This document shows positions 6,934 to 52,510 of a stretch of 64,000 bases of DNA, one piece after another (position 1 is the stretch's first letter; each line of letters begins with the position of its first letter). The notes under the pieces were generated by a model, which worked only from the letters and a program-made list of their open reading frames with translations, was not told the origin of the DNA and searched no databases. This DNA comes from Thermoplasmata archaeon (GTDB taxonomy: Archaea > Thermoplasmatota > Thermoplasmata > Thermoplasmatales > GCA-001856825), in the NCBI GenBank assembly GCA_021817415.1, contig JAKAUZ010000013.1:4376-68375 (forward strand), in the 5' to 3' direction. Made by a program: the position numbers and the translations under genes.

Positions 6934-7008
6934 GGGCTTGTGGGGTAGATTGGTTCATCCTTTCGGCTTCGGGAGTCGAAGACTCCGGTTCAAATCCGGA
7001 CAAGCCCA
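6934..7008 (+). tRNA. tRNA-Pro (anticodon CGG), no intron, CCA not encoded
   Basis: Manual cloverleaf: acceptor GGGCTTG/CAAGCCC, D arm GGGT..ATCC, anticodon stem TCGGC/GTCGA with loop TTCGGGA, T arm TCCGG-TTCAAAT-CCGGA, discriminator A. Confidence 0.9.
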
Positions 7009-35322: not shown

Positions 35323-35350
35323 TAGTTATTCTTTGTGTTTAAATTTGAAA

Positions 35351-36829
35351 CTACATCTGTAAGGTAATTGAACTAGGAATCGACGGATAGGGGGAGAGAC
35401 TTTTTTGGGTGGAGAGCCACATTACCGGAAGCATGATTATCCACAGAAAAACCGCTAATTCTGTTTGCTGTCCTAGGGACCAGAATGGCCATATCTTAGA
35501 CTGAAGTGAAAATGTATAGTAATATATGAAAATCGGGACAATTCCAAGTAAAACAGCGTAAACTTCGATGATCCCTAATCCCACTCTTTTACCAGACATA
35601 AAAAATGAAGCCCCTATTAAGAATCCAGACAATGTCATCGTGTATGACATTATTGAAAATACAACTGCGTTCTCAATCGCTAACCGAGTTATAGGTGGGT
35701 CGAACCAAATGATGGCAAGAAAAGAAGAAATAAAGAGCAAAAATATGCCAAAATACGGTTTCATAAAGCGTCTCTTTAAGGTTGAAGAAATAAGGTAAAA
35801 TAAGATGAATCCGTCTAGAATCATAAACATCCCTGTTCCAAAGAGAAAGAAAGGTGAAGTTTCCAAATCATACAGAATGCCTAGTAAAACCAGCAACTGG
35901 GAAAATGTTATGGTGAGGGCCATTACTAAAGTCATACCAATTTTTGCTGGGCCTAAAGTCGCTAAAAACCTGGGGGTTCTTTTCCTCTCGTAATATCTTG
36001 ACACAAAAAAGTAAGTCATGATAAGCAAAAAAACGCTCAAGAAAATAAAGGGGATGAGCAGGATATTAAGTAAGAGAATTGTAACAGCAGGAAGAAGAGC
36101 AATTGAACTTTCGCATTGGCAGCTCAGAGCAGCCACAATTCCGTACCCAGCTGCCATAACACCGCTTTCTTTTCCATTCACTGCAGAATCTTCATTTCTT
36201 CTCTTTGCAATCAGACTGAATATCCTGTGGTAGTTTTCAACTAACAATGATGAAAGGCTCATAGTTAGAAAGAATTGAAGAGGACTAATTATGACGTCAG
36301 CATATGGGGTACTCACAAAAATGCCATATATCTCAGTAATTGGCAATGAAAAGCCTATAGTTGAAATCCTGTCCGAAAGGTTTTGAATGATTATCGAGGA
36401 AGCAGTCTGTTGATTTACAAATACGAAAACCTTAGAAATGATAAGAACGAGGAAAATTACAGTATACAAAGAGACTCCCTTTGAAAGCTTGTCGTTATTC
36501 CCAAGCTGGGAAGCATAGATGACCATCCCCGCAAGGGCAGGAATCAGAAGAAGGAAAGAAAGTAAACTCCTGGATATGACAATTAACCCAGCAAGATAAA
36601 ATGAAATCGTAACTAGAATGTAAAATGAGAGATTTTCCCACTTAGAAAGAAGTGATGACAACACCAACAAGTTAAGGACTATTGAATATGAAATTAGCTG
36701 CAAAACTGAATCTGAAGTTACCAAAAGGTATTTCGAATAGTAGCCAGTGATGATAAAAGTATTGATAAAGAATAAAGAAATAAGCAATAAAATTGAATAA
36801 GGCGTCCCTTTCTCATTCTTTGAATGCAT
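35351..36829 (-). CDS. Uncharacterised polytopic membrane protein (492 aa) in the Rieske/cytochrome b operon
   Basis: At least 12 TM helices and an intramembrane CQCE motif. Its start overlaps the cytochrome b stop by 17 nt. Confidence 0.55.
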   Translation of the reverse strand: MHSKNEKGTPYSILLLISLFFINTFIITGYYSKYLLVTSDSVLQLISYSIVLNLLVLSSLLSKWENLSFYILVTISFYLAGLIVISRSLLSFLLLIPALAGMVIYASQLGNNDKLSKGVSLYTVIFLVLIISKVFVFVNQQTASSIIIQNLSDRISTIGFSLPITEIYGIFVSTPYADVIISPLQFFLTMSLSSLLVENYHRIFSLIAKRRNEDSAVNGKESGVMAAGYGIVAALSCQCESSIALLPAVTILLLNILLIPFIFLSVFLLIMTYFFVSRYYERKRTPRFLATLGPAKIGMTLVMALTITFSQLLVLLGILYDLETSPFFLFGTGMFMILDGFILFYLISSTLKRRFMKPYFGIFLLFISSFLAIIWFDPPITRLAIENAVVFSIMSYTMTLSGFLIGASFFMSGKRVGLGIIEVYAVLLGIVPIFIYYYTFSLQSKIWPFWSLGQQTELAVFLWIIMLPVMWLSTQKSLSPYPSIPSSITLQM

Positions 36830-38414
36830 GTGATCTGTACAACTTTACAAAGGCACCGGCCAGGGTGAACAGGAGTGCCATCCCGACCCCATAAAGTCCC
36901 TGGGAGGTAATCTGAGTTGGAGACATGACTGATATAATTGCAATTATCGCAATAGCTAGAAAAGCATATATGCTGCCAAATACAAGGTGCCCCTTGTCTG
37001 TCAGTTTCTTTGTGGGAGTTTTGAAGTTGACTCCATAAACTAATGCAAAGGTTGCAAGGCTAGTCAGACCCAATATCACAAGTAGAATTATCATGGCGGT
37101 GTAATTATAGAATGTAGGGTAAACGATTACAGAGTATACTGATATGCCGGTCAAGATAGAAATGAATCCAAGAATCGGAAGGATTGCGTAAACTTTCCAT
37201 GCATTTTCTCCCAAACTGGATTTACCGAGTTCGATCCTATTCGCAAGATAATAAATCAAAGGTATGACGACCGCCAATGGTATTATGAAAAACAACAGCC
37301 CAGTTATGTTGCTCACAGGTATCCCCGGATCAAGAGCCCCCCACGCAGACAGGCCAAACAGATATATGAGACCTACAACTCCAGTCGATACCACAATATT
37401 TCTTTTGGTAATTTTCAAGGTATCCTTTTTTTCGAAGTAGGGTACTGCAAATAGGTATGCAAGCGGAAGTCCAGTAAAGAGTACAACAGCCCAGAATGGA
37501 CCCAAACTAGTCGAGACCTGGAAATCAAGTTCTTTGTACACGAACAGTAAAAACCACGGTGGATACGGTGGCACAGATGATGCAAGGGGACTTGATGCAG
37601 CCACCTGGGGGAGTGGAGAGAATAGCGCCGGAACGTTTGGAAGTATAGTGAGAAGAGAGGGAATTATGAAAATTAGAGCAATAGTGAAGAAGGCAATCTG
37701 GACCATGTACAAAAGATTGTAGGGATACCACGCCTTATAGGATGGTTCTTCTTTGTCTATTGCCGGAACTTTGAATCCAGTTTCCTTAGCGGAGGGCATT
37801 ATTGTATTGTACTCAGCGAGGAAGAAATGAACAGCGAAAAGTATGAGAATTGATCCTGCAAGTATTATGTGCCAGCCTTCAAGTCTGCTGAAAAGGGAGA
37901 TATCACTCCCATTTCCAAGGAATATCGTTGAAAGATATGAACCTATAACAGGGAAACCGTTTGCAATCCCCCTTCCCACATCAGTTGCATCTGCAGAAAG
38001 CACATCCCCTGTCATGGAATATCCAAAATAGGAGATAGCCACTGTCAGTATCATGAGTACGATTCCTGTAAGCCATTGCACCTGTCTTGGTTTTTTGTAG
38101 GATCCAACGAACAAGTTGCGGAGTAGATGGATGTAAACAAGAGCTATCATGATGTAAGCGCCATACAGGTGAGTTGTCATGATTACTGTTCCGTAAGGAA
38201 TATGGAGCGTATTCTCAGTACTTATGTACGCATTAGAAGGCTGATAATAGAAAAACAATATGACCCCAGTCATTACCTCGTAAAAGAAAGCAATCATTAT
38301 CATTGCCCCTGTCCAGTACCAGATGCCTCCCTTCTGTCTCATGTAGTCTGGTACTTTTCTAGGAAGAGGCTGAGGCTCATTCATCAATTTTTCAATTAGA
38401 TTCTCTTTAGTCAT
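36813..38414 (-). CDS. Cytochrome b (quinol oxidising, SoxC/SoxN-like)
   Basis: Two H-x13-H heme-ligand pairs (HLYGAYIMIALVYIH and HIILAGSILILFAVH) and an extended C-terminal TM region. The start is ATG at 38414 or GTG at 38423. Confidence 0.85.
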   Translation of the reverse strand: MTKENLIEKLMNEPQPLPRKVPDYMRQKGGIWYWTGAMIMIAFFYEVMTGVILFFYYQPSNAYISTENTLHIPYGTVIMTTHLYGAYIMIALVYIHLLRNLFVGSYKKPRQVQWLTGIVLMILTVAISYFGYSMTGDVLSADATDVGRGIANGFPVIGSYLSTIFLGNGSDISLFSRLEGWHIILAGSILILFAVHFFLAEYNTIMPSAKETGFKVPAIDKEEPSYKAWYPYNLLYMVQIAFFTIALIFIIPSLLTILPNVPALFSPLPQVAASSPLASSVPPYPPWFLLFVYKELDFQVSTSLGPFWAVVLFTGLPLAYLFAVPYFEKKDTLKITKRNIVVSTGVVGLIYLFGLSAWGALDPGIPVSNITGLLFFIIPLAVVIPLIYYLANRIELGKSSLGENAWKVYAILPILGFISILTGISVYSVIVYPTFYNYTAMIILLVILGLTSLATFALVYGVNFKTPTKKLTDKGHLVFGSIYAFLAIAIIAIISVMSPTQITSQGLYGVGMALLFTLAGAFVKLYRSHAFKE

Positions 38415-38423
38415 TTTAAACAC

Positions 38424-39134
38424 CTACTGGGTCGTAGTGACCGTGGTTTTCCCCGATGGGGTAATGTTGCTTCCACCTGTCAGATCTGAAGAGTGCCCAT
38501 ATATGGTGGGTCCAACTAGCAATGTTGCACTGTAGGAATCAGATTTCTCGTCATAACTGAGGACAACACTGGGCAAGGGTGCTTGTGTAGGCCCTGTTAC
38601 GACGCCGAATCCGGAATAGGGATCATAAGTGCTCCCGTGGCAGTCACAGTGTATCTTTCCAGGGAAAGAAGAAGATGATGGAGGGTTAAAATGTATTTCC
38701 GGAGGAATACAACCCAAGTGCTGACATATTGCGGAAGCTGCAACGACTGATTTATATGGTCCGACCCCCCCAGGAACTTTGTATTTCGTGTTATTTGCAG
38801 GGATTCTCACTTCGGTTGGATTGATTTCGACGTCCTTGTTATTTGAATCACCAAGTCTGAGGAGAAAATTAGGTTCGTTTTCTAGTGGGAAATTGAACGT
38901 CACCGTTTGCGGGTTGTTGACAATAAGATCATCTGTGCTTACCGGGTTCCCGTTTGGCAAGTAAAGGGTAAGGATAGGAAATGAAGAAGCTCCACCTTCT
39001 ATTGGAGGGATGATGTTCTGGACAACGCTCCTGAGCGTCCCAGCAACTCCTGCGCCTATTATCATCACTCCTAAGAGCTTCATGAAATTTCGTCTATCTT
39101 TATCCTTAATCTCATCTCTTGTTGGCACAGACAT
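38424..39134 (-). CDS. Rieske [2Fe-2S] protein with a Tat signal
   Basis: CQHLGC and CDCHGS boxes. The twin-arginine leader is DRRNFMKLLGVMIIGAG. Confidence 0.9.
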   Translation of the reverse strand: MSVPTRDEIKDKDRRNFMKLLGVMIIGAGVAGTLRSVVQNIIPPIEGGASSFPILTLYLPNGNPVSTDDLIVNNPQTVTFNFPLENEPNFLLRLGDSNNKDVEINPTEVRIPANNTKYKVPGGVGPYKSVVAASAICQHLGCIPPEIHFNPPSSSSFPGKIHCDCHGSTYDPYSGFGVVTGPTQAPLPSVVLSYDEKSDSYSATLLVGPTIYGHSSDLTGGSNITPSGKTTVTTTQ

Positions 39135-39138
39135 CCCC

Positions 39139-39885
39139 TTAAGCCGTTACCTGGACTACTCCTTCCATCCACCCTGCAGTTGCCATCGCTCCTCCCCAAC
39201 CGTCAAGCTCGTGACCGCAGGGCACATAGCACTGCCAGGGATAGCTACCGGTATTGTTAAGATAAAACTCTGTAAATGTCACTGCGCCTCCCGATGGATT
39301 CGTTCCAGCAAATGTTGGAACATTTAGCACAATTTGTCCGTTTGAAAGCAAAGTGAAAGTGTGAGTGACTTCCCACCCTCCAAATGTAGAATTCCACGGA
39401 AGCGACGAAACTGCCCATCCGCTTCCATGTACTATTGAAATATCGTTAGAAGCATTGCCACTTAATGTAGAATTTATATACTGAGCTGTTCCATTATAAA
39501 CATATTCGACTCCACCCACTGTTCCTATTACTTTGGCATATGAAGAATTATTTGAAGTTCCGTTAGGGCCGATTATGCTTGTCACTCCACTATCATAATC
39601 GATTATAGTTAGCTTTATCAATCTGTGTGAAGGAAGTGTAATCACAGCAGAAGATTCAAGTTGACCATTTGGTCCAACTACGAAGAAGGCAGGCTGAGTA
39701 TGATGTATTGTAGCATTGTCAAACCAGTTATTAGGCGAAATCAACAGGGTCAAAGATACAGGTCCTTGAGGTAACTGCTGCTGCGGGGTTGAAGACAGAG
39801 TTTTGTCATAAGCTACGCCCACTCCTATTCCACCAACAAGAATAATGGCTGCTATGATGGCATAAAACGTCTTTTCGCTTATCAT
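39139..39885 (-). CDS. Membrane-anchored, sequon-rich cupredoxin-like (sulfocyanin-like) protein with an atypical ligand loop
   Basis: N-terminal anchor and a beta-rich domain. Candidate ligands are VTHTF ... YPWQCYVPCGHELDGWGGAMATAGWMEGVVQV. It contains 8 N-x-S/T sequons. Confidence 0.5.
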   Translation of the reverse strand: MISEKTFYAIIAAIILVGGIGVGVAYDKTLSSTPQQQLPQGPVSLTLLISPNNWFDNATIHHTQPAFFVVGPNGQLESSAVITLPSHRLIKLTIIDYDSGVTSIIGPNGTSNNSSYAKVIGTVGGVEYVYNGTAQYINSTLSGNASNDISIVHGSGWAVSSLPWNSTFGGWEVTHTFTLLSNGQIVLNVPTFAGTNPSGGAVTFTEFYLNNTGSYPWQCYVPCGHELDGWGGAMATAGWMEGVVQVTA

Positions 39886-40337: not shown

Positions 40338-40634
40338 ATGATTAAGGAAAATAAACCTAATCTATCCCAGGACGAGATTTGGAGAGAACCAGTCAACCTT
40401 GCACTTTTCAGAAAACCCCAGGGCAAGGTTCATGTTATTGCCGAAAGGTGCAAGGAATGCAACTACTGTACAAATTACTGCCCAAATGAGGTGCTTGAAA
40501 GATCCACTAACACAAACAGCCACGGATACCACTACGTGCAGGTCAAGGCAGGAAAAGAAAGTTCCTGCGTAAATTGCGGAATGTGTCAAACCATATGCCC
40601 AGACTTTGCAATATTTGTCACGGAGGTGCAGTGA
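40338..40634 (+). CDS. korD: 2-oxoacid:ferredoxin oxidoreductase delta subunit (2x[4Fe-4S])
   Basis: CKECNYCTNYCP and CVNCGMCQTICP motifs. Confidence 0.85.
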   Translation: MIKENKPNLSQDEIWREPVNLALFRKPQGKVHVIAERCKECNYCTNYCPNEVLERSTNTNSHGYHYVQVKAGKESSCVNCGMCQTICPDFAIFVTEVQ

Positions 40635-40642
40635 ACTTGAAT

Positions 40643-41773
40643 ATGTTACCTCCTGGGAAATATTTTACAGACGGAAATTTTGCTGCCACAGAAGGAGCAT
40701 TATATGGTGGATGTAGATTCTTCGCAGGGTATCCTATCACACCCTCAAGCGAAATATTAGAAAGAATGAGCAGACGTTTACCAGAGGTCGGAGGGCACTT
40801 CATCGAGATGGAGGACGAAATAGCCAGCATAGCCGCAATTATTGGTGCTTCCAACGGCGGGCTAAAAAGCATGACTGCCACTTCAGGACCTGGTTTTTCC
40901 TTGATGCAAGAGAATATAGGTCTGGGAATGATAACCGAGACTCCGACGGTCATCATTGATGAAATGAGGGCTGGACCTTCCACTGGAATCCCAACCAGAG
41001 TGGGCCAGGGAGACGTAATGCAAACTCGGTGGGGTTCTCACGGAGATTTGGCACCTATTACTTACTCTCCTAACAGTGTACAGGAATCATTTGATTTAAC
41101 GATATTAGCTTTCAATTCGGCTGAGATCTATAGGCAGCCGGTAATAATCGCTTCTGACCAGGTAATTGGCCACCTAAGCGAGATTCTTACGGTTGGTAAT
41201 CCTGAAGAGTACGAAGTGATCCAGAGACTTACCAGGAAGAAAGCGAACGGGAACCACAATACATTCAGTTATTCTGATGACTTTATTCCAATGTTTGTTC
41301 CCGGAACAGGATTCAGAGGTAACGTCGATAGTCTCACGCACGATGAAATGGGTTATCCTTCTAATGATGCATCAGTGGAAAGGGAGATGCTTGAACATCT
41401 ACTGGGAAAAATCAAGAGGAACGAAACGAAAATAATACGTTTTGAGGAGTATATGACCGACGATGCGAAAGTAATAGTTGTTGCGTATGGGATCACCTCA
41501 AGGTCTGCCAAAAAGGCAGTTAAGAATGCGAGGGATGAAGGTTTGAAGGTCGGCCTATTCAGGCCCATTACGCTCTGGCCCTTCCCCGAAGGAAGAATAG
41601 TTGAACTCGCAGAGAAAACAAGGAAATTCATAGTGCCAGAAATAAACTATGGCCAGTATTCCCATCCAGTCAGGGAATTCAGCAGAAGGGAGACAGAAGA
41701 GATTCACTTTCCACCTGGTGCAATACCTGATTTTAAGATCATTTTAAGGGAAATTGAGAGGTCATTTACATGA
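40643..41773 (+). CDS. korA: 2-oxoacid:ferredoxin oxidoreductase alpha subunit
   Basis: GNFAATEGALYGGCRFFAGYPITPSSEI motif. ATG at 40643 follows the korD stop. The tracker start at 40574 lies inside korD in another frame. Confidence 0.9.
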   Translation: MLPPGKYFTDGNFAATEGALYGGCRFFAGYPITPSSEILERMSRRLPEVGGHFIEMEDEIASIAAIIGASNGGLKSMTATSGPGFSLMQENIGLGMITETPTVIIDEMRAGPSTGIPTRVGQGDVMQTRWGSHGDLAPITYSPNSVQESFDLTILAFNSAEIYRQPVIIASDQVIGHLSEILTVGNPEEYEVIQRLTRKKANGNHNTFSYSDDFIPMFVPGTGFRGNVDSLTHDEMGYPSNDASVEREMLEHLLGKIKRNETKIIRFEEYMTDDAKVIVVAYGITSRSAKKAVKNARDEGLKVGLFRPITLWPFPEGRIVELAEKTRKFIVPEINYGQYSHPVREFSRRETEEIHFPPGAIPDFKIILREIERSFT

Positions 41774-42612
41774 GCATTGAGGAAGTGCATCCAAAGAGTC
41801 AATTTCTGAGGGACGAGAGACTCCCGCATATCTGGTGCCCAGGTTGTGGATTGGGGATCGTACTTCAAAGTTACATCAATGCAGCTGAAAAATCTGGAAT
41901 CAGGCTGGAAAATCACGTATTGATTTCAGGAATAGGGTGTACGGCCAGGCTTCCAGGGTATGCAAATCTTGATACTTATCACACAACCCACGGAAGGGGG
42001 ATTCCTTTCGCAACTGGAATGAAAATCGCTAATCCGGATCTAAAAGTGACTGTGATCAGCGGAGATGGCGATCTGTTCAACATTGGTGGGAATCATTTCA
42101 TACATGCCGCAAGAAGGAACATGGACCTTTTGGTGGTTTGTGTCAATAATTTCAACTATGGCATGACAGGAGGACAGCACGGATCAACTACCCCGCCCTC
42201 CTCCCTGTCTTCCTCTACACCCTACGGGAATATAGAGCAATCATTCAATCTGCCATATCTTGCAGCAGCAATAGGTGCATCGTATGTTGCCAGATGGACA
42301 GTCATGCATCCAAGACAGTTTACAAAGTCACTGTCTAAAGCGATGGATATAAGGGGATTTGCATTTGTGGAAGTGTTATCTCCATGTCCTCCAAACTTTG
42401 GCAAGTTCAATGGCTTTTCAGACGGGTTTGCAGAAATGGAGTTCTACAGAAAGAATTCTGTAGTCGATAATGAGGCAAAACTAGAGGATGTCTCAATTGA
42501 CCCACATCACGGCAAACAAATAATTCTGGGAGAATTTGTCAACAAAAGAAGACCTTCTTTCATAGAGCTGGAAAGAGAGGTCAATCGAAGGGCGATGGTG
42601 GTGGAAAAATGA
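41770..42612 (+). CDS. korB: 2-oxoacid:ferredoxin oxidoreductase beta subunit (TPP binding)
   Basis: WCPGCG, GIGC and SGDGDLFNIGGNH TPP/cluster motifs. ATGA overlap with korA. Confidence 0.9.
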   Translation: MSIEEVHPKSQFLRDERLPHIWCPGCGLGIVLQSYINAAEKSGIRLENHVLISGIGCTARLPGYANLDTYHTTHGRGIPFATGMKIANPDLKVTVISGDGDLFNIGGNHFIHAARRNMDLLVVCVNNFNYGMTGGQHGSTTPPSSLSSSTPYGNIEQSFNLPYLAAAIGASYVARWTVMHPRQFTKSLSKAMDIRGFAFVEVLSPCPPNFGKFNGFSDGFAEMEFYRKNSVVDNEAKLEDVSIDPHHGKQIILGEFVNKRRPSFIELEREVNRRAMVVEK

Positions 42613-43139
42613 CTGTAAACATAAGGATTTATGGAATGGGAGGGCAAGGGATTATCACACTGGCCAAGCTGATAGGAGAAGCTGCAGTTGAAGACGGGAA
42701 ATCGGCGATCATGACCGAGGAGTATAGCCCTTATGTTACTGGTGGCTGGTCAACAGCCGATCTTATTATCAGCGATCATGAGATAGACTATCCGCTCATT
42801 GAGAATCTCGATTATCTCGTCACTCTCTCTCAAGAAGGGCTGGAGAAAAATCTCGAATCAATAAAAATGAGCTCCAAACTAATTACTGAAAAGTCTCTTG
42901 TTAAGGTGCCCGACTTATATAAGAAACAGGCCTTTGAAATACCGGGAATAGAGCTGGCCAAATCCCTGAATAATCCAAAGGGGACTAACATGGTTATAAT
43001 GGGGGCGATAGGTGGGGTTACGAAATCCTTTTCGAAGGAATCAGGCAGGGCTGCCATCTCGAAAAGATTTCCCAGTTTCTCGGAAATTAACATAAATTGC
43101 TTTGACAGAGGTTTTGAGGAGGTGACTCGACCTGGCTGA
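42609..43139 (+). CDS. korC: 2-oxoacid:ferredoxin oxidoreductase gamma subunit
   Basis: IYGMGGQGIITLAKLIGEAA motif. ATGA overlap with korB. Confidence 0.88.
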   Translation: MTVNIRIYGMGGQGIITLAKLIGEAAVEDGKSAIMTEEYSPYVTGGWSTADLIISDHEIDYPLIENLDYLVTLSQEGLEKNLESIKMSSKLITEKSLVKVPDLYKKQAFEIPGIELAKSLNNPKGTNMVIMGAIGGVTKSFSKESGRAAISKRFPSFSEININCFDRGFEEVTRPG

Positions 43140-46100
43140 CAAAGTCCTTGTCATCGGAGGAGGAATTGCTGGAATCCAGGCTTCTTTGGACCTCGCGGAA
43201 TCTGGAGTAGAAGTGGTACTTGTGGAAAAAAGTCCCTCAATAGGGGGCAAGATGGCAGCGCTGGACAAGAATTTTCCAACGATGGATTGCTCAATCTGCA
43301 TCGAAGCACCAAAAATGAGCGACGTCATTCACAATCCGAATATCAAAGTTCATTCACTATCGGAGGTCACAAAAATTGAGGGGAAGGAGGGGGATTTCGA
43401 GGTCACTATTTACCAAAAGCCAAGGTTTGTCGATGACTCCTGCACAAGATGCGATTTATGCGTGCAAGCTTGTCCCCAAATACTGAAGAATGAATTCGAC
43501 GCTGGAATTGGAGCCAGAAAGGCAATATATACCCCATTTCCACAGGCGGAACCAGGTCCATACGTCATCGATATTGATAGCTGTTTGAACGAACCACCCA
43601 ACTATCTACCTTGCGGAAGATGCACAGACGCATGCGGTCCTGGAGCGATAGATTTCAACATGAAGCCAAAACTGATAAAAGAAAAGGTGGTTTCAGTCAT
43701 TGTTGCAACCGGGTTCGATCTATTCAACGCATCGCTGCTGAACGAGTTCGGTTATAGCAAGGATCCTGACATTCTGACATCCTACGAATTGGAAAGGATG
43801 ATCAATGCGGCGGGCCCTACGGATGGAGAAATAATCAAACCTTCAAACGGACAGCACCCTGAAAAAGTATTGTTTGTTCTGTGCGCAGGTTCCAGAGATG
43901 CGAGATTTGTTCCATATTGCTCAAGAACTTGCTGTATGTATTCCATCAAAGAAGCTTCCCAGCTGGTAGACCACGGAATAAAGAATGTTTCAGTCCTGTA
44001 CATGGATATCCGAGCTTATGGGAAAGGTTTCGACGAATTCTACTCAAGGTCACAAAGGGACGTCAGATATATAAGGTCAAGGCCAGCATCCGTTAGAAGG
44101 AAGGGGGATTCCATAGAGGTAAGATACGCGAAGGAGGACGGCTCCGTCACGAAGGAGGACTATGACCTCGTTGTTCTTGCTACTGCCTCGATCCCATCAA
44201 AGGGAACGGATAAGTTAGCTGGAATTCTCGGACTGGAGTTATCTGAAGACGGATTCTTCAAGAACAAACAAGATGACCCAGTTTCTACATCAAGAGAAGG
44301 GATATTTGTGGCTGGATGCGCTTCGGGGCCAAAGGATATCCCAGATAGCGTTACAGAAGCTTCTGCAGCTTCTGCCAGAGCGCAGAAATATGTCAAGAAC
44401 AGAGAATGGATAGCGGAACCAAAAGCACCTCCTCTTGATATGTCAGGAGACCCAAAAGTTGGAGTTTTCCTCTGCGACTGTGGTTCGAACATAGCAGGAG
44501 TGGTTGATGTAAAAAGGGTTGCAGAGGAAATGAAAAAAGTGCCGAACGTAGTCTACGTCGAGGAGAATAAATTCACCTGTTCTGGCAGCTCTCAGGATGC
44601 AATAGCTGCAAAAATCAAGGAAAAAGGGTTGAACAGGGTAGTGGTAGGGGCATGCTCTCCCAAGACTCACGGAGTAACCTTCCAGAGGGTGTGTTCAAGG
44701 GCAGGCCTGAATCCCTATCTTTTTGAAATGGCAAATGTGCGAAACATGGACTCATGGGTCCACAAGAAGGAAAAGGATAAAGCGACGGAGAAGGCAACAG
44801 ATTTGGTGAAGATGGCAGTCGCAAAAGTGAAATTACTGTCTCCGATGGATGATATCGAGTTTCCAGTTATTAAAACTGGCGTCATCATTGGGGGAGGACC
44901 TGCGGGAATGGCTTCAGCTGCGGCCTTATCCAACATTGGACTCGAGGTTCACCTGATAGAGGAGAAAGGAGAACTTGGAGGGCTTCTCAACTCGCTAGAC
45001 AGGGTAGCTCCTTCTAATATTGAGGCTGCTGAGATTTTTAAAAAATTGAAGAAGGGAGTGGAAGAATCTAATGTACGTATTCATACATCAACAAAAGTGA
45101 AAGAGATCACCGGTTTTGTAGGAAATTTCTCCCTTAAGCTTTCAAATAATGAGAATATTGAAGCGGGAGCTATAGTTATAGCCACCGGTGCTGACCCTTA
45201 CTCCCCTACCGAGTTCAATTATGGAAAAGATGAAAAGATCCTCACTTCGAATGACATAGAAAAGAAATACTCACGACTGGAGGGAGAACGCTTTGCCCTA
45301 ATATCGTGCGTTGGATCAAGAACTAGGGAGAAAGGATGTTCAAGATTCTGCTGCTCAACGATGCTCCAGCAGGCAATAGATTTGAGAGAGAAGGGAAAAA
45401 TCGTAAGGGTTTTCTACAAGGATGTCAGAGCATATGAGAGAAACGCAGAAGAATTGTACAAGAAGGCAGGGGAAAAAGGGGTCCAATTCTACAGGTATGA
45501 TTCAGAAAAACTCCCACAAGAGGCAATTTTCTTCGACGGAAATTCAGTGACATTCGTGGATGAACTTACGTCCGCAAAATTGAAAGCGCCAGTCGATAGA
45601 GTCGTATTGAACGTCGGTCTTATGCCGAAGGATCAGGAAATATTCACCCAATTGAAGCTTTCGAGGGACAACGAAGGCTTCCTGCTTGAATCTCACCCAA
45701 AACTCGGTCCCGTGGAAGCCGCAGTTCAGGGTATCTTCTTGGCAGGAACAGTTCAGGGACCGAAGGATGTGAAAGAGTCAATTTCTCAGGGTTATGCCAC
45801 AGCTTCCAAGGCAGCAAAGCTGCTGATGGGAGGGAAGATATCAAAGGAACCCATAATTCCGCAGATCAATACAAACAAGTGCGTCAAGTGCCTGAAGTGC
45901 GCAGAGGTTTGTCCGTACGGGGCGATAAAAGGTGAAAGGGGAAAATGGATAAACCTAGTCCCAGCAGCGTGCATGGGATGCGGGAACTGTGTCGCTGAAT
46001 GTAATATTGAAGGGGCAATAACCATGCCCAATTTCACCGACGAACAAATAATGACGCAGATCGATCAGGCCACGGCCGAAAAAGCAGAAGAGAAGTTACT

Positions 46101-46524
46101 GGTGTTCGCCTGTAACTGGTGTTCATATGCGGGCGCTGATCAGGCCGGAATATCAAAGATACAGTACCCTCCCAGTGCGAGAGTTATAAGGACCATGTGC
46201 TCCAGCAGAATATCCCAAAAACTAGTCATGTATGCATTTAGCAAGAATCCGGGGGCAGTCCTGGTCACTGGATGTCATATAAATGATTGCCACTACATAG
46301 ACGCTAACGTTCATACTGAGAAAAGAATGGAGAGATGGAAGAGGTTCATATCAGCGAAGAACGTGAATCCGGATAGATTACAATTGTGGTGGGTCAGCGC
46401 CGCAGAAGGTAACAGGTTTGCATCAAAGATTAAGGAAATGGATGCGCTGATCAAATCTCTCTCTAAGGAAGAGATTCTGAGCACTTCAGAAAAGATTGGA
46501 GGGGTGGTAAAACGATCGAAATAG
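43132..46524 (+). CDS. Tandem HdrA-type flavoprotein with a C-terminal MvhD domain (QmoA::QmoB-like fusion, about 1130 aa)
   Basis: Two GxGxxG motifs, each followed by CxGSR..CSxxCC. Four ferredoxin-type cluster motifs. MvhD-like FACNWCSYAGAD...GCHINDCHY. The first FAD motif (KVLVIGGGIAGIQ) lies upstream of the tracker TTG at 43186. The proposed start is CTG at 43132, 6 nt after ggaggtga. Confidence 0.8.
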   Translation: MADKVLVIGGGIAGIQASLDLAESGVEVVLVEKSPSIGGKMAALDKNFPTMDCSICIEAPKMSDVIHNPNIKVHSLSEVTKIEGKEGDFEVTIYQKPRFVDDSCTRCDLCVQACPQILKNEFDAGIGARKAIYTPFPQAEPGPYVIDIDSCLNEPPNYLPCGRCTDACGPGAIDFNMKPKLIKEKVVSVIVATGFDLFNASLLNEFGYSKDPDILTSYELERMINAAGPTDGEIIKPSNGQHPEKVLFVLCAGSRDARFVPYCSRTCCMYSIKEASQLVDHGIKNVSVLYMDIRAYGKGFDEFYSRSQRDVRYIRSRPASVRRKGDSIEVRYAKEDGSVTKEDYDLVVLATASIPSKGTDKLAGILGLELSEDGFFKNKQDDPVSTSREGIFVAGCASGPKDIPDSVTEASAASARAQKYVKNREWIAEPKAPPLDMSGDPKVGVFLCDCGSNIAGVVDVKRVAEEMKKVPNVVYVEENKFTCSGSSQDAIAAKIKEKGLNRVVVGACSPKTHGVTFQRVCSRAGLNPYLFEMANVRNMDSWVHKKEKDKATEKATDLVKMAVAKVKLLSPMDDIEFPVIKTGVIIGGGPAGMASAAALSNIGLEVHLIEEKGELGGLLNSLDRVAPSNIEAAEIFKKLKKGVEESNVRIHTSTKVKEITGFVGNFSLKLSNNENIEAGAIVIATGADPYSPTEFNYGKDEKILTSNDIEKKYSRLEGERFALISCVGSRTREKGCSRFCCSTMLQQAIDLREKGKIVRVFYKDVRAYERNAEELYKKAGEKGVQFYRYDSEKLPQEAIFFDGNSVTFVDELTSAKLKAPVDRVVLNVGLMPKDQEIFTQLKLSRDNEGFLLESHPKLGPVEAAVQGIFLAGTVQGPKDVKESISQGYATASKAAKLLMGGKISKEPIIPQINTNKCVKCLKCAEVCPYGAIKGERGKWINLVPAACMGCGNCVAECNIEGAITMPNFTDEQIMTQIDQATAEKAEEKLLVFACNWCSYAGADQAGISKIQYPPSARVIRTMCSSRISQKLVMYAFSKNPGAVLVTGCHINDCHYIDANVHTEKRMERWKRFISAKNVNPDRLQLWWVSAAEGNRFASKIKEMDALIKSLSKEEILSTSEKIGGVVKRSK

Positions 46525-47642
46525 ACGACTCAAGATGGGAAAGGATCACCAATCTGGTCGGGTTCAGCGGAAGCGAATGTTTTCAATGCGGAGTGTGTAC
46601 GGCGACCTGTCCTCTGGGATTCATGGGAGAAGAGACCATAGATACCCGTAACATTCTGAGAAGGGCGCAGATTGGCGCGGAACTCCCGGATAGCGTTTGG
46701 AAATGCTCTACCTGCAGACTATGTGAGGAATCTTGTCCCAGGGATGTTGATATTGTAAATGTAGTACTGGGGCTGAGAGAGCTGGAATTTCAAGATAGGA
46801 AGGCACCTGAAAGAATAGAGAAACTTGTGTGGGATATATATGAGGATGGGAATCCATGGGGAGGGAAGAAGGGAGACAGAAATAAGTGGGCAGAAGGTTT
46901 GGAAATAAAGGATGCTAGTAAAGGGGTGGAAACGCTACTATTCGTGGGATGCGACGGTGCATACAATAAGGAACTCCACAAGTCGCTTCGCTCTCTTGCA
47001 GAAATCCTGAAGAAATCAGGAACAGATTTTGGTTTCCTAGGAAATGAAGAATCCTGCTGCGGCGAACCTGTCAGGGACGCAGGGGAAACGGGGTACCTAG
47101 ACGAGCTGGTAGAGAAAAACATATCACAGTTTGAGAGTACTAAGGCCAGGACTCTTGTGACATTCTCGCCACACTGCAGCAACATGTTCTCGACGATCTA
47201 CAAGAAAAAAGGGTTGAAGATGAAGGTAATGCATTATTCAGAATACTTAAATGAACTTGTCAGGGATGGGAAAATTACCATCAATTCTGAAATCAAGAAA
47301 AAAATAACAATTCACGACCCATGCTACCTCAGTAGATATGGAGGAGACTCGAAAGAGTTGAGGGAACTGGTCGTTAAGGTACCAGGAACTGAAATAGTGG
47401 AAATGGAAAATTCCGGTAAAAACAGCTTATGCTGCGGAGGTGGCGGGGACAGGATTTTCATGGATTTCGAAGGAAAGAGGCTTTCAGATTTCAGGATGGA
47501 ACAAGCAAAGAACACCGGTGCCGAGGTAGTCATAACCGCGTGCCCGATCTGCAACATGAATCTCTCAGACAGCAGGAAGGTAAATGGAATAAAAATGGAA
47601 ATTATGGAACTTTCCGAATTCCTGAAGGGGGGAACGGAATGA
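46515..47642 (+). CDS. HdrD-like Fe-S protein (HdrC-type 2x[4Fe-4S] plus two HdrB-type CCG domains). Start uncertain.
   Basis: CFQCGVCTATCP and CSTCRLCEESCP, then CCGEP and LCCGGGG CCG motifs. The first canonical start (GTG at 46593) lies inside the first cluster motif. In-frame candidates are ATC at 46515 and ATA at 46521. Confidence 0.75.
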   Translation: MEIDDSRWERITNLVGFSGSECFQCGVCTATCPLGFMGEETIDTRNILRRAQIGAELPDSVWKCSTCRLCEESCPRDVDIVNVVLGLRELEFQDRKAPERIEKLVWDIYEDGNPWGGKKGDRNKWAEGLEIKDASKGVETLLFVGCDGAYNKELHKSLRSLAEILKKSGTDFGFLGNEESCCGEPVRDAGETGYLDELVEKNISQFESTKARTLVTFSPHCSNMFSTIYKKKGLKMKVMHYSEYLNELVRDGKITINSEIKKKITIHDPCYLSRYGGDSKELRELVVKVPGTEIVEMENSGKNSLCCGGGGDRIFMDFEGKRLSDFRMEQAKNTGAEVVITACPICNMNLSDSRKVNGIKMEIMELSEFLKGGTE

Positions 47643-48613
47643 CAAGGAAGGAGATATGGGTCTATATTGAGAGGAACAACTCAGGTGTTGAAGACGTGTC
47701 ATTGGAAATATTAGGCAAAGGAACTGAATTGTCAAATATTTCTGGGTACATACTGGTCGGACTGATTGCCGGTACTCCAGAAAAGAAGTTGATAGACCTC
47801 GTGATAGAACACGGGGCAGACAGAGTTGCACTACTTAAGAATGAAATGTTGAATGAATATTCTACTGACTATTTTGTAAATGCAATTTCTGAATATATAA
47901 AGAACGATCCTCCGGAAGTTATGCTGATAGGAGCAACGCAAAATGGAAGGGACCTAGCAGGGAGACTGGCAGGTAGATTGAAGACTGGCCTAACTGCAAA
48001 TGCCATTACTCTATCAATTGACCGTGAAGGGATGCTCCTGGCAGGAGTTCCTGCATATGGTGGAAAAATTCTCGCTGAAATTGGCTGTGAATACGGGAGA
48101 CCGCAAATGTCAACCGTACGTCCAGGAACATTTAAGATGAAAGAAGTGAAGAATAAAAAAGGGGAGGTTGATGAATTCATTCCAAATTTATCTGCTATCA
48201 GACAGAGAGTGAGAATTGTAGAAAGAAATGTGAGCGAAGTGAACGATCTAACAAGATCTGAAAGGACAATCATCGGAGGTAACGGAACCAGAGGTGACCT
48301 GACACTGCTAAAGGAATTGGCTCAATTGATGAATGCTGAGATAGGGGTCACAAGACCTCTAGCAGACAGAGGGGTAGCCCCGAGGGAGTTGCAGGTGGGT
48401 TCGACGGGCTACTCTCTGAAAAGCAAAATCGCGTTGGTGCTTGGAGTCAGCGGGTCGGAACATTTCACTTCTGGGATAAGAGACTGTGAGGAGGTCATTG
48501 CAATTGACGTGGACGAGAAATCAGAAATTTTCAACCACTGTGACTATTGTATGGTAGGGGATATTTTCGAGGTGCTTCCGCTGACAATAAAGAAAATGGA
48601 GGAAACTAGATGA
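47639..48613 (+). CDS. etfA: Electron transfer flavoprotein alpha (large) subunit
   Basis: C-terminal FAD-binding pattern LGVSGSEHFTSGI...VIAIDVDEKSEIF..CDYCMVGD. ATGA overlap with the upstream gene. The tracker extension to 47429 is out of context. Confidence 0.88.
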   Translation: MTRKEIWVYIERNNSGVEDVSLEILGKGTELSNISGYILVGLIAGTPEKKLIDLVIEHGADRVALLKNEMLNEYSTDYFVNAISEYIKNDPPEVMLIGATQNGRDLAGRLAGRLKTGLTANAITLSIDREGMLLAGVPAYGGKILAEIGCEYGRPQMSTVRPGTFKMKEVKNKKGEVDEFIPNLSAIRQRVRIVERNVSEVNDLTRSERTIIGGNGTRGDLTLLKELAQLMNAEIGVTRPLADRGVAPRELQVGSTGYSLKSKIALVLGVSGSEHFTSGIRDCEEVIAIDVDEKSEIFNHCDYCMVGDIFEVLPLTIKKMEETR

Positions 48614-49395
48614 AAAACATCATTGTTTGCGTCAAGGTGGTACCTAAATCCGACAATATAATTTTTGACCCGGTAAACAAGAGACTTGACCGTACTAAGG
48701 CAGAAAACCAGATCAACGCAGCAGACAAGAGTGCAATTGAAACTGCTCTAAGAATAAGAGAGAGAGTCGGTGGAAAAATAACATTACTTTCAATGGGACC
48801 CCCTTTCTTTGAACCGTTCCTGAAATTAGGAATAGCTATGGGGGTTGACGAGGCAATCCTTCTTTCGGATAGAAATTTTGGTGGTGCAGATACTTTCCCC
48901 ACAGCGTTAGTACTCGCAACAGCTATCAAGAAAATTGGGAACGTAGATCTAGTGCTGACAGGTGAAGAATCATCAGATGCCGGACTTGGGCAAGTACCGT
49001 CACAGATAGCAGAATTTCTGGATTTCCCCCAGGTCCTTTTTGCTTCCACCACTGACATATCTGGAGGTACGTTGATCGCCAGAAGGTCAATAAAAGGAGG
49101 TTATGAGATCTTAGAATCAGATTTGCCGGCTGTTGTAAGTGTAGTTCTGGGAGCATATCAACCCAGATTTCCAGACTTTAAGAAGAAGAAATGGGCTGAC
49201 AATAATTACAAGGTCAAAGTTTGGAACGGGGAAGATCTGCAACTGAGCGAATCAGTCACAGGCATCAAAGGATCTTTCACCACGGTGAAGAGACTGGTAG
49301 AGATTCCCCAGTCATCAAGGAAGAAAATTATCATAGATGGAACGCCAGAAGAGAAATCATCAAAACTGGTTGAGATTTTAAGAAAGGCAAAATAG
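48610..49395 (+). CDS. etfB: Electron transfer flavoprotein beta (small) subunit
   Basis: MKNIIVCVKVVP...INAADKSAIETALRI...LLSMGP pattern. ATGA overlap with etfA. Confidence 0.88.
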   Translation: MKNIIVCVKVVPKSDNIIFDPVNKRLDRTKAENQINAADKSAIETALRIRERVGGKITLLSMGPPFFEPFLKLGIAMGVDEAILLSDRNFGGADTFPTALVLATAIKKIGNVDLVLTGEESSDAGLGQVPSQIAEFLDFPQVLFASTTDISGGTLIARRSIKGGYEILESDLPAVVSVVLGAYQPRFPDFKKKKWADNNYKVKVWNGEDLQLSESVTGIKGSFTTVKRLVEIPQSSRKKIIIDGTPEEKSSKLVEILRKAK

Positions 49396-49414: not shown

Positions 49415-49843
49415 TCACTTTCTCTTTGCTACTGAAATGGCTCCAGCGGGACATGCGGCCACGCAGGCATTACACAAAATACAATCTTTCTCTCCCACAG
49501 GGTCTGCCTTATCGGTTCTGTAAGTATCCCAGAGTAGAGTTCCGCGTTCAATCGGTCTGTCATTTCCCTTTCCCCGTTTACCCGGATTCAGAGCCCATTC
49601 GAATCCGTTCATCGGGCAGGCTTCCATGCAGGATCCATCGGCAATGCAGCTATCCCAATCAACGGCAACATTCACACCATGAATCCCTAATCGTGTAGGA
49701 TACGGTTTGTTTTCTTCATCAAACCTCACTTTACCTTCCGCCCTTACCTCGTGCCCATTGTGCATTCCCGTTATTGGATATTGGTCCGGAAGATCGAAAA
49801 AATTTTCATCAATTGCCCTTGGTGGGTAATCAACTTTTTCCAT
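49415..49843 (-). CDS. Zinc-containing 7Fe (dicluster) ferredoxin, Sulfolobus/Thermoplasma type, copy 1
   Basis: N-terminal extension with His ligand candidates (TGMHNGHEV, IHGV) plus the CIADGSCMEACP and CILCNACVAACP motifs. Confidence 0.85.
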   Translation of the reverse strand: MEKVDYPPRAIDENFFDLPDQYPITGMHNGHEVRAEGKVRFDEENKPYPTRLGIHGVNVAVDWDSCIADGSCMEACPMNGFEWALNPGKRGKGNDRPIERGTLLWDTYRTDKADPVGEKDCILCNACVAACPAGAISVAKRK

Positions 49844-50040
49844 GAATTATACTATGTCTTTGGTCGTACTAATAAATTTCTCACATTTAATCTTACTAAG
49901 ATTTCAAAATTGGGTCGATTCCATCATTTCTCTGAAAATTTCAGTGCAAGGAAGTTTACGCCTTCAGGGGCGAGTCTATCTATAATCAACTCCCACGTCT
50001 TAAATATTCATTTTGCTGGAATAACCCCCGTTCATTTCTA

Positions 50041-50751
50041 TTACTTGTTTTCCTGACCACATCCCTGGCACCAAAGATAGAAATCCAGAAAATCTATTTC
50101 TTCCTGGAGAATCATATTCTCAAATCCTGTAAGATCGAATCTTCTTTTCCTATGATAAGGGACGACCGTTAGCTCCTTTGCGTTAGCCAGAACCAATTTC
50201 ATCATATCGTCTGCATCTACCTTAATTCCTTTTAGCACAATTCCCTCTCCATTTGAACTGATTTTAAGAGGAAGGGTAATTGAGGATAATAGTAGATGCG
50301 GCTCCTTGTCATCAATCACAATTTTTGAATTTTCAGAATGGAAAACTTCGTCGCACAGGAGCGCAAGGAAGAGGCCATTATTAATTGCGGTTCCATTAAT
50401 CGCTGCAAAAATGGGCTTCTCCAGAGAGATGAAGAAAAGGATCAAATTTTTAAGGCTTTCATAATAGTCTCTCAAGTCAGCATATGTCCTGGATTGAGGA
50501 AGTGAAAGACCTTTTGAAAATATAAAGTTCGAACCAGTCAGCACCAAGGATTTGACGCTGTCGTCAACAGCCGCTATTGACAGAACGCTTATCAGTTCGT
50601 GAACTAAACTCTTATCAATTGTACCTGGGGAGAGTATTGTTACTATGCCCACAGGGCCCTCTCTCCAAAAAGAAATTTTGGAGTACCCATCTACTTTTGG
50701 TGCCTTCGCAGTATTACCAACTATATCGCCGCTCACAAAAATTGAATTCAT
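50041..50751 (-). CDS. Enoyl-CoA hydratase/isomerase (crotonase) superfamily protein
   Basis: LVLTGSNFIFSKG...EKPIFAAINGTAINNGLFLALLCD oxyanion-hole pattern. Confidence 0.55.
   Translation of the reverse strand: MNSIFVSGDIVGNTAKAPKVDGYSKISFWREGPVGIVTILSPGTIDKSLVHELISVLSIAAVDDSVKSLVLTGSNFIFSKGLSLPQSRTYADLRDYYESLKNLILFFISLEKPIFAAINGTAINNGLFLALLCDEVFHSENSKIVIDDKEPHLLLSSITLPLKISSNGEGIVLKGIKVDADDMMKLVLANAKELTVVPYHRKRRFDLTGFENMILQEEIDFLDFYLWCQGCGQENK

Positions 50752-51037: not shown

Positions 51038-52510
<1,473 letters not shown>

Follow-up and report, generated by a model that had tools for sequence, protein, structure and literature searches.

An asymmetric HdrA-type pseudo-dimer with a fused MvhD domain and one probable bifurcating flavin in a conserved gene block of a Thermoplasmata archaeon

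The stretch of DNA analysed here (the window) comprises 64,000 nucleotides (nt) of contig JAKAUZ010000013.1 of a Thermoplasmata archaeon (GenBank assembly GCA_021817415.1, positions 4,376 to 68,375 of the forward strand; window coordinates are used throughout), and contains a block of eight plus-strand genes built around an unusually long hdrA-like gene. The block opens with the genes for a four-subunit 2-oxoacid:ferredoxin oxidoreductase (OFOR; 40338..43139), with Pfam matches to POR_N, PFOR_II, TPP_enzyme_C, POR and Fer4 and a match above cut-off to NCBIfam NF006412. Its subunits are encoded in the order delta (40338-40634), alpha (40643-41773), beta (41770-42612) and gamma (42609-43139), and the stop of the last overlaps the start of the hdrA-like gene (43132..46524), which encodes an 1130-residue protein combining what we read, from the frame itself, domain searches, a structural model and homologue N-termini, as a fused HdrA pseudo-dimer with a C-terminal MvhD domain. 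This is followed by an HdrD-like, or BamD-like, HdrC::HdrB fusion (46515..47642; two Pfam CCG matches plus Fer4) and by the two subunits of an electron transfer flavoprotein (ETF), EtfA (47639-48613) and EtfB (48610-49395), identified through Pfam ETF/ETF_alpha matches. All genes of the block overlap, or are spaced, by a few bases. An initial annotation had described the reading frame at 43132-46524 as a covalent QmoA::QmoB-like fusion of two flavin units with an MvhD tail, potentially holding two bifurcating flavin adenine dinucleotide (FAD) sites.

Translation of 43132-46524 yields 1130 codons without internal stops, so the single uninterrupted frame of that annotation stands. The codon at 43132 is CTG, with an in-frame TGA upstream at 43123-25, and the first ATG, GTG or TTG in the frame is TTG 43186; a start at this position would remove the FAD motif. 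We consider CTG 43132 to be probably a genuine, near-cognate, non-canonical start, because the N-termini of homologues (M-A-D-K-V-L) align exactly with the L-A-D-K-V-L of the window, the homologues having ATG where the window has CTG, and because the same CTG is found in two independent assemblies; on this basis the start coordinate first assigned is right, non-canonical codon or not. A Shine-Dalgarno-like GGAGGTGA is located 7 nt upstream. The possibility of a selenocysteine or frameshift joining the gene via TGA 43123-25 to the upstream open reading frame (ORF) of 176 residues was rejected, since that ORF is OFOR gamma (Pfam POR) and not an HdrA N-terminal domain. The adjacent hdrD-like gene likewise has no ATG, GTG or TTG upstream of its first CxxCxxCxxxCP motif (window 46498-46625), and likely starts at ATC 46515 or ATA 46521, after GGAGGGGTGGT. 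With non-canonical starts in both of these neighbouring genes, both are truncated by gene callers: the hdrA-like gene is begun at TTG 43186, giving a deposited product of 1112 residues that lacks the GGGIAG FAD motif, and the hdrD-like gene at ATG 46623 (339 residues), dropping the first [4Fe-4S] motif. The hdrA-like gene is also systematically mis-annotated, as "hydrogenase iron-sulfur subunit", "cinnamate reductase" or "HdrA2".

Apart from the gene's unusual length and the lack of a canonical start codon, nothing favours an assembly or frameshift artefact that fused two adjacent hdrA genes, an explanation to which we assign a negligible probability. An identical protein is encoded on at least 24 contigs from independent samples, and homologues of similar length, for which the initial annotation had proposed a search, form more than 120 clusters at the 90% identity level (1125-1145 residues, 97-100% query coverage, 53-80% identity) from Thermoplasmata, Nitrososphaerota/Aigarchaeota, Chloroflexota and Kariarchaeaceae. 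In addition, a scan of one genome per species confirmed at least 595 relatives, and the single-chain AlphaFold2 model is confident. With so many clusters of the same length and so many genome loci encoding relatives, a stop or frameshift splitting the gene in two, which would have undone the annotation, is not what is found. The fusion is real and ancient.

All sequence motifs on which the annotation relied are present at their reported positions. The first unit (residues 1-433; 43132..44430) is a thioredoxin-reductase-like (TrxR-like) FAD domain that aligns with HdrA 144-520 (47% identity, TM-score 0.90); it carries GGGIAG at residue 9, the Cys53/Cys56 pair within DCSIC (nt 43288-43299), LCAGSRDARFVPYCSRTCC at residues 250-268 with the four cysteines C251/C263/C267/C268, and Lys273 (codon at nt 43948-43950). 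Within it lies an inserted ferredoxin domain (residues 96-185; 43417..43686), defined by alignment to its HdrA counterpart, with ligands for two [4Fe-4S] clusters (C104/107/110/114 and C151/161/164/168). Next come a cluster domain of the HdrA N-terminal type (residues 439-578; 44446..44865), which matches HdrA 3-145 at an E-value of about 5e-41, contains CDCGSN at residue 448 and GACSPK at residue 506, and has four invariant cysteines (C448/C450/C483/C508), and the TrxR-like FAD domain of unit 2 (residues 580-905; 44869..45846), delimited by motif and alignment, with IIGGGPAG from residue 585 (nt 44884; GGGPAG at 587), SCVGSRTREKGCSRFCC at residues 725-741 with C726/736/740/741, and Gln746/Gln747. 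The chain ends with a ferredoxin domain for two further [4Fe-4S] clusters (residues 906-985; 45847..46086; Pfam Fer4 families at 908-965, HdrA 568-655) and an MvhD domain (residues 986-1113; 46087..46470) with C994/C997/C1023/C1048/C1053, predicted to hold a [2Fe-2S] cluster. The MvhD motifs run from residue 992 (CNWCS at 994, about nt 46111; GCHINDCHY at 1047), and the domain is matched by Pfam FlpD (residues 990-1110, E 7.5e-44) and by the MvhD chains 5odc_D and 9sw2_D (E about 1e-31). Taken together, the cysteine inventory predicts a cofactor content of 2 FAD, 7 [4Fe-4S] and 1 [2Fe-2S].

Domain parsing thus recovers the proposed parts, with two pyridine-nucleotide-disulfide-oxidoreductase regions, two ferredoxin regions and FlpD/MvhD in Pfam, and the matches are too strong to be due to chance. 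Two HdrA-type flavin units, both keeping a GxGxxG FAD motif and a CX..CX3CC cluster motif, are indeed joined covalently, with MvhD as their tail. A PDB sequence search matches solved HdrA chains to the protein at an E-value of about 1e-178, and the alignment is interleaved: the HdrA N-terminal cluster domain (3-145) falls on residues 439-578, the thioredoxin-reductase core with the inserted ferredoxin domain (144-520) on residues 3-377, the C-terminal part (511-657) on residues 841-985 and MvhD on residues 986-1110. When searched alone, residues 436-985 are colinear with full-length HdrA (11-244 and 326-655; E 9e-116), skipping only the inserted ferredoxin domain, and the second half is therefore HdrA-like. 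The two units share 29% identity (E 2e-22), and in their alignment unit 2 has no counterpart of residues 94-187 and no DCSIC motif. An AlphaFold2 model built with 44 homologues is compact (predicted local distance difference test score, pLDDT, 86; predicted template-modelling score, pTM, 0.88), and its comparison with the Hdr-Mvh HdrA in Foldseek agrees with the fusion, giving TM-scores, normalised to the HdrA chain, of 0.76 over 653 columns for full-length HdrA (5odc_A) and 0.90 over 427 columns at 47% identity for the HdrA core (8rwn_A). Two details of the annotation require revision. Ferredoxin motifs do occur in both halves (residues 104-115 and 161-170; 917-928 and 947-957), but they are not equivalent, the first pair corresponding to the inserted and the second to the C-terminal ferredoxin domain of HdrA. 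Likewise, the CDCGSNIAG...GACSPKTH domain is present but is not a mere in-between domain; it is the HdrA N-terminal cluster domain and belongs to unit 2. The two halves are unequal: unit 1 consists of a flavin core and the inserted ferredoxin, and unit 2 of the N-terminal domain, a flavin core and the C-terminal ferredoxin, after which MvhD follows.

This asymmetry extends to the flavin sites. In HdrA, the cysteines C386-C399-C403-C404 are followed by Lys409 (numbering counted from the alignment). In unit 1, C251-C263-C267-C268 are followed by Lys273, and Cys53/Cys56 correspond to HdrA Cys194/Cys197; C53, C56 and K273 are invariant in 44/44 family sequences. In unit 2, C726-C736-C740-C741 are followed by Gln746-Gln747 (nt 45367-45372) at the place of Lys273; at position 746 the sequences have N, G, Q, S or T, with lysine in 0/44, and Gln747 is kept in 42/44 sequences. 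Unit 1 therefore has all HdrA-type features (FAD motif, CX..CX3CC, cysteine pair and N5 lysine), of which unit 2 lacks the cysteine pair and the lysine. A precedent is BamE of class II benzoyl-CoA reductase, described as "a fused HdrA dimer" with "extensive domain permutation", in which Lys280 is at N5 of the bifurcating FAD of the first TrxR domain (TrxR1) and Cys59-Cys62 lie in unit 1 (bioRxiv 10.64898/2026.04.10.717634). The lysine contacts the flavin N5 in both HdrA and BamE, and the second FAD of BamE, next to Gln768, is non-bifurcating (same source). By analogy, it is most likely that only the unit-1 flavin bifurcates and that the unit-2 flavin domain serves mainly as a scaffold. Two bifurcation centres in one polypeptide, as the initial annotation had envisaged, would be consistent with the FAD glycine motif and the adjacent four-cysteine cluster motif kept in both units, and with the binding of FAD by both TrxR domains of BamE. 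Against this, none of the 44 sequences has an N5 lysine in unit 2, a unit that also misses the DCSIC pair and the inserted ferredoxin and so has no low-potential exit of its own, and the second FAD of BamE lies off the branching point and is judged non-bifurcating. On these grounds we consider it unlikely that both flavins bifurcate, and give the two-centre arrangement a probability well below one in five.

Is this protein tied to its neighbours? In orthologues (at least 50% identity), the eight genes occur in the same order (OFOR delta-alpha-beta-gamma, fused HdrA, HdrD, EtfA, EtfB) at every locus with enough flanking sequence, in Thermoplasmata, Nitrososphaerales, an Aigarchaeota-like genome, Kariarchaeaceae, Chloroflexota and Elusimicrobiota, i.e. 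in at least five phyla and two domains. Clustering of all flanking ORFs of 27 loci revealed no ninth conserved gene in the clade with Etf. A more distant clade at 41-44% identity (Planctomycetota, Gemmatimonadota and others) keeps OFOR, fused HdrA and HdrD, and the remaining clades, about 40% identical (Asgard, Methanomassiliicoccales, Desulfobacterota), show no OFOR and no Etf. A split version, which the annotation had suggested looking for, is seen at locus L053 of an uncultured bacterium from the OFOR-only clade, where MvhD is a separate gene of 155 residues and EtfAB is replaced by canonical HdrA-MvhD, HdrC and HdrB. In this second HdrA-MvhD gene, the very codon for the Cys197 position is an in-frame TGA (TMDCSI*ILGPK; L053 12242-12481), presumably encoding selenocysteine, and ORF callers report it as pieces of 203 and 608 residues. 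With E-values below 1e-30, an exhaustive search of 50%-identity representatives yielded 2521 proteins. Among the best 150, most are about 1000 residues long, colinear with residues 4-980 and BamE-like without MvhD, a few of them reach 1100-1176 residues with MvhD included, and relatives of 790-797 residues rank far lower. P0148, P0137 and about 25 other representatives (1300-1530 residues) have an NfnB/GltD-like NAD(P)H module (Fer4_20 + Pyr_redox_2) inserted in unit 1, recalling HdrL and the HdrA9-11 proteins of anaerobic methanotrophic archaea (ANME). Full-length fused HdrA+MvhD at about 40% identity also occurs in Methanosarcina sp. DH2 (L085) and in bins labelled Bacteroides salyersiae and Dialister hominis (L062/L063), labels that are implausible for this gene; these gut bins may be contaminated by Methanomassiliicoccales-like contigs.

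The same gene context bears on the resemblance to Qmo. QmoA and QmoB are separate HdrA-like flavoproteins, the second with ferredoxin and MvhD domains, which occur with the membrane subunit QmoC in an apr/sat context. Going by published descriptions, the domain order here does resemble that of the two placed in a row, with a flavin unit from QmoA and then a flavin unit, ferredoxin and MvhD from QmoB, and a QmoA::QmoB fusion would take part in quinone-linked electron transfer to adenosine 5'-phosphosulfate (APS) reductase. The conserved partners of the present protein, however, are OFOR, HdrD and Etf, and no qmoC, aprAB or sat was found among the window ORFs beyond position 7000 that were scanned against Pfam or at the orthologous loci. 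The QmoA::QmoB resemblance is fair as an architectural analogy; gene context gives no support for a Qmo role, which we regard as highly improbable.

By hydropathy the HdrD-like protein is soluble. It carries two cubane motifs, and of its two CCG motifs the second is intact, whereas the first has degenerated to S218-P-H220-C221 where C-P-x-C would be expected. The resulting S-P-H-[C/S] is conserved among orthologues (Ser218 in 17/18, His220 in 18/18). In BamD (bioRxiv 10.64898/2026.04.10.717634) and in the ETF:menaquinone oxidoreductase EMO, a histidine fills the substrate pocket and a cysteine ligand of the distal cluster is lost, and both proteins are electron relays to or from ETF and not disulfide reductases. 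Because its first CCG motif is degenerate in a way that recalls these changes, the analogy suggests that the HdrD-like subunit is an ETF-docking relay and not a disulfide reductase. This is one of several points that make a genuine heterodisulfide reductase of the Methanosarcina HdrA2 type, reducing the coenzyme M-coenzyme B disulfide (CoM-S-S-CoB) or another disulfide at the HdrD-like subunit, very unlikely. Such an assignment might be suggested by the score for the HdrA2 model NF040770 (1165 bits vs a cut-off of 1100) and by the labels "heterodisulfide reductase subunit A" or "A2" given to homologues by the Joint Genome Institute (JGI). The 1165 bits are, however, a sum over three stretches from two flavin units against a model of 777 positions, the HdrA equivalog models stay below their cut-offs (NF041891, 695 bits vs 1300; NF041778, 676 vs 1400), and the hosts (Thermoplasmata, Nitrososphaerales, Chloroflexota) are not methanogens.

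The best solved relatives of EtfAB are CarDE, Bcd-Etf, EtfABCX and LctBC. Against five structurally proven bifurcating ETFs, EtfA and EtfB give E-values of 1e-34 to 1e-52, vs 1e-15 to 1e-21 against AMP-binding, non-bifurcating ETFs; in bit scores, EtfA reaches 157-181 vs 71-79 (full-length non-bifurcating chains) and EtfB 121-146 vs 60-72. This suggests that EtfAB is of the bifurcating type, with an NADH site and a second FAD. The OFOR alpha subunit scores above the cut-off of the curated "2-oxoacid:acceptor oxidoreductase alpha" model, and the NCBIfam model that ranks next is the one for the alpha subunit of 2-oxoglutarate synthase. A candidate contact site between OFOR and the fused HdrA is the loop at residues 151-161 (nt 43582-43614), which lies inside the inserted ferredoxin's second cluster motif. 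Compared over loci L003-L087, this loop reads CLNEPPNYLPC here and CLNxPPNY[LIMW]PC in nearly all loci with OFOR and Etf, with CVNxYPILL[TP]C in two; about half of the OFOR-only loci show CLN[DE], a spacer of 4-5 residues and C, with CxYLTKGxC or CxxC elsewhere. Residues 154-160 have low pLDDT and are disordered in the isolated model, and the segment could serve in docking. Immediately beyond etfB, but read from the other strand (window 49415-49843), lies a gene for a ferredoxin of 142 residues with a long N-terminal extension, beside an enoyl-CoA hydratase gene (the pair spanning window 49415-50751, minus strand); neither is conserved at other loci, and the ferredoxin might act as a free partner of the complex.

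In canonical HdrA, a homodimer, electron paths cross between the protomers. We favour, with somewhat better than even confidence, a reading in which the protein is an asymmetric, BamE-type HdrA pseudo-dimer on a single chain that also includes MvhD, forms the core of an eight-subunit complex and has one bifurcating flavin. The products of the eight genes probably make up a complex for flavin-based bifurcation or confurcation in which 2-oxoacid/acyl-CoA chemistry is connected with ETF. The fused protomers would split the labour, unit 1 providing the flavin with the N5 lysine, the Cys53/Cys56 redox pair and the inserted ferredoxin as low-potential exit, and the N-terminal cluster domain of unit 2, the C-terminal ferredoxin and MvhD together forming the entry arm. 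Following the BamE and HdrA structures, electrons would enter or leave via the C-terminal ferredoxin domain and MvhD, with the unit-1 FAD as branching point. The high-potential arm would then run from the C251-C268 cluster via HdrD to ETF, and the low-potential arm would comprise the inserted ferredoxin domain as well as the cluster in residues 439-578, which Cys56 would complete. From energetics, the OFOR (couple about -500 mV) would join this low-potential arm at the inserted ferredoxin, because bifurcation would be pointless if it sat at the entry arm. Docking of the OFOR at the MvhD entry arm was indeed rejected as an alternative, given that a -500 mV donor reduces ferredoxin without bifurcation, and NADH as the only reductant for 2-oxoacid synthesis, without a high-potential sink, is ruled out thermodynamically. 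In one direction, electrons derived from 2-oxoacids and from ETF would be confurcated onto a mid-potential acceptor; in the reverse direction, acyl-CoA would be reductively carboxylated at the OFOR, with the other electron going downhill to ETF. NAD(H), via the bifurcating-type ETF, and a free ferredoxin are candidates for the mid-potential partner.

Several points weigh against this reading. What ties the protein to OFOR, HdrD and ETF is synteny; the bifurcating status of EtfAB comes from a ranking of similarities and not from a cofactor analysis; the equivalence with BamE is drawn from the preprint description and residue numbers and not from an alignment or superposition; and a missing lysine is no proof that the unit-2 flavin is redox-inert. 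The arm at which the OFOR docks is argued from energetics and, weakly, from a loop correlation that is bound to clades and not phylogenetically independent. The reaction scheme also misses a partner, as no dedicated mid-potential input module was found in or near the block among the flanking ORFs of the 27 loci, and none of several electron-flow schemes worked out on paper from the encoded parts alone is fully satisfactory.

A serious rival, which we consider improbable, though it merits attention, takes the block to be a non-bifurcating wire that passes electrons from 2-oxoacid oxidation either to NAD+ or through ETF into the respiratory chain, the OFOR having dedicated acceptor subunits without coupling, much as in NADH-dependent phenylglyoxylate dehydrogenase but assembled from Hdr and Etf components. 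In favour of this, the block is complete in itself and has no third module; additional NAD-linked OFOR subunits are known as NCBIfam families, with PadG and PadI among the weak matches; and a cytochrome b/Rieske-like cluster adjoins the block, so that the host probably respires. However, for a simple wire, the hallmarks of bifurcation in unit 1 and the three-arm wiring would be superfluous, and yet they are strictly kept across phyla, and the ETF is of the bifurcating type. An extension of the favoured bifurcating complex, which we put forward tentatively and consider possible although doubtful, is a soluble, hitherto uncharacterised supercomplex of all eight gene products in which HdrA-type and Etf-type bifurcation modules would work in series and the OFOR would be the low-potential catalytic module. 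Modules wired in series are known from class II benzoyl-CoA reductase, where they are of the HdrA and HydBC types (bioRxiv 10.64898/2026.04.10.717634).

The protein is a clean example, at the sequence level, of how an HdrA homodimer was turned into an asymmetric single chain with one working bifurcation path, and it corrects the tempting equation of two HdrA hallmarks with two bifurcating flavins. Since an architecture with two HdrA units and MvhD is already known, any novelty may lie in the conserved operon and not in the fusion. The block pairs a 2-oxoacid:ferredoxin oxidoreductase with an HdrA/HdrD/ETF core, and recent work on benzoyl-CoA reductase showed such a core passing the high-potential electron on to ETF (bioRxiv 10.64898/2026.04.10.717634). 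If the eight products form one complex, this would add a new substrate class to HdrA-type bifurcation and offer a candidate answer to how uncultured archaea that degrade peptides or fatty acids balance low-potential (2-oxoacid) and high-potential (acyl-CoA) electrons. Were the supercomplex to exist, its hosts (Thermoplasmata, non-ammonia-oxidising Nitrososphaerota, Heimdall-group Asgard, and Chloroflexota or Elusimicrobiota) would be able to merge electrons from 2-oxoacids and acyl-CoA onto NAD+, or to drive pyruvate or 2-oxoglutarate synthesis from NADH, without free low-potential ferredoxin. In the limited literature that we searched, no paper describes an OFOR-HdrA(x2)-MvhD-HdrD-EtfAB operon, a description of which may exist elsewhere; a paper on deep-sea Chloroflexi and one on MK-D1 deal with other Hdr clusters.

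Elsewhere in the window, a complete archaeal 16S rRNA gene (Rfam, 1476 bits) lies at 51038-52510 (plus strand) with no 23S rRNA gene beside it, and the only tRNA gene is tRNA-Pro(CGG) at 6934-7008. The closest protein homologues come from Thermoplasmata genome bins. Divergent from the operon, a minus-strand cluster at 33397-39885 encodes cytochrome b (36813-38423), a weakly Rieske-like protein (38424-39134), a protein of 640 residues that ends in a 2x[4Fe-4S] domain (33397-35322) and three ORFs without a Pfam match at E 1e-5, and may specify an unusual quinol-oxidising respiratory complex. Further upstream are an aconitase X gene pair (28457-30399, minus strand), whose small subunit, the swivel domain, carries a fused NUDIX hydrolase domain, and two plus-strand ORFs of 691 (22798-24873) and 692 (26382-28460) residues, again with no Pfam match at E 1e-5, that flank an aspartyl/asparaginyl-type tRNA synthetase gene.

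How does the fused protein compare with known systems? With the HdrA and MvhD of MvhAGD-HdrABC (PDB 5ODC, 8RVU, 7BKB) it shares four recognisable HdrA domains and MvhD at 33-47% identity, and the cluster ligands, Cys194/197 and Lys409 of canonical HdrA are each kept in the appropriate unit. The canonical protein is, however, a homodimer of single-core, 650-residue chains with a separate MvhD, whereas here the four domains are spread over two flavin cores in one chain of 1130 residues, the specialised elements occur once each and there is an extra flavin domain. In addition, the partner HdrB of the canonical system has two intact CCG motifs, and HdrB and HdrC are replaced here by a degenerate HdrD-like fusion with SPHC. 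The layout of HdrA2, one HdrA unit plus MvhD in about 780-800 residues, differs by the second flavin unit. From QmoA/QmoB, the present system is set apart by a context in which neither a membrane subunit QmoC nor apr/sat was found. The 2xHdrA arrangement with C-terminal MvhD was noted in a 2024 survey of archaeal gene fusions and fissions (PMC11237513, cluster 77) in Thorarchaeota, Lokiarchaeota and TACK lineages; the architecture is the same three-part one, the survey giving no residue analysis, operon context or proposed function. The fused HdrA3/HdrA4 of ANME and the HdrA of the Moorella MetFV-HdrABC-MvhD complex show complementary loss of the N-terminal domain and of Cys197, so that each is probably "its own heterodimeric partner" (Chadwick et al. 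2022, PMC9012536). Those proteins likewise have two HdrA units per chain with complementary N-terminal domain and Cys197, but in reversed order, the N-terminal unit there having the N-terminal domain without Cys197 and the first unit here having the Cys197 equivalent, and their partners are FdhAB-like proteins or MetFV instead of OFOR and Etf.

A close parallel is BamE, which we know from its description in a preprint; the PDB sequence and fold matches of the present protein include no BamE chain, the 80 genome loci listed include none from Geobacter, and ten relatives of about 1000 residues that were looked up bear generic names only. In that enzyme, BamF is an MvhD-like adaptor, BamD is an HdrBC fusion that passes an electron to ETF, and the inserted ferredoxin domain of BamE feeds the low-potential module (bioRxiv 10.64898/2026.04.10.717634). 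The two systems differ in the MvhD adaptor, which is part of the chain here but in the case of BamF is a separate, longer protein with selenocysteine, in the bifurcating type of the present ETF, and in the four-subunit OFOR that takes the place of the tungsten BamBC and the BamGHI modules. Neither the BamBC module, of the aldehyde oxidoreductase (AOR) type, nor the HydBC-like BamGHI module was found among the scanned window ORFs or at the orthologous loci, which have the OFOR genes upstream instead, and because these modules are absent the protein is not part of a benzoyl-CoA reductase. The likeness is nonetheless extensive: both are fused HdrA dimers with permuted, complementary domains and seven [4Fe-4S] clusters, both use an adaptor of the MvhD type, both have next to them an HdrBC-fusion subunit whose non-cubane sites are changed and whose partner is ETF, and the key residues follow each other in colinear numbering (Cys59/62 vs C53/C56, Lys280 vs K273, Gln768 vs Q746/747). 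Judged by its sequence, the protein thus possesses every testable feature of the BamE type, namely two complementary FAD units, a lysine and cysteine pair confined to the first of them, and an adjacent BamD-like gene together with ETF.

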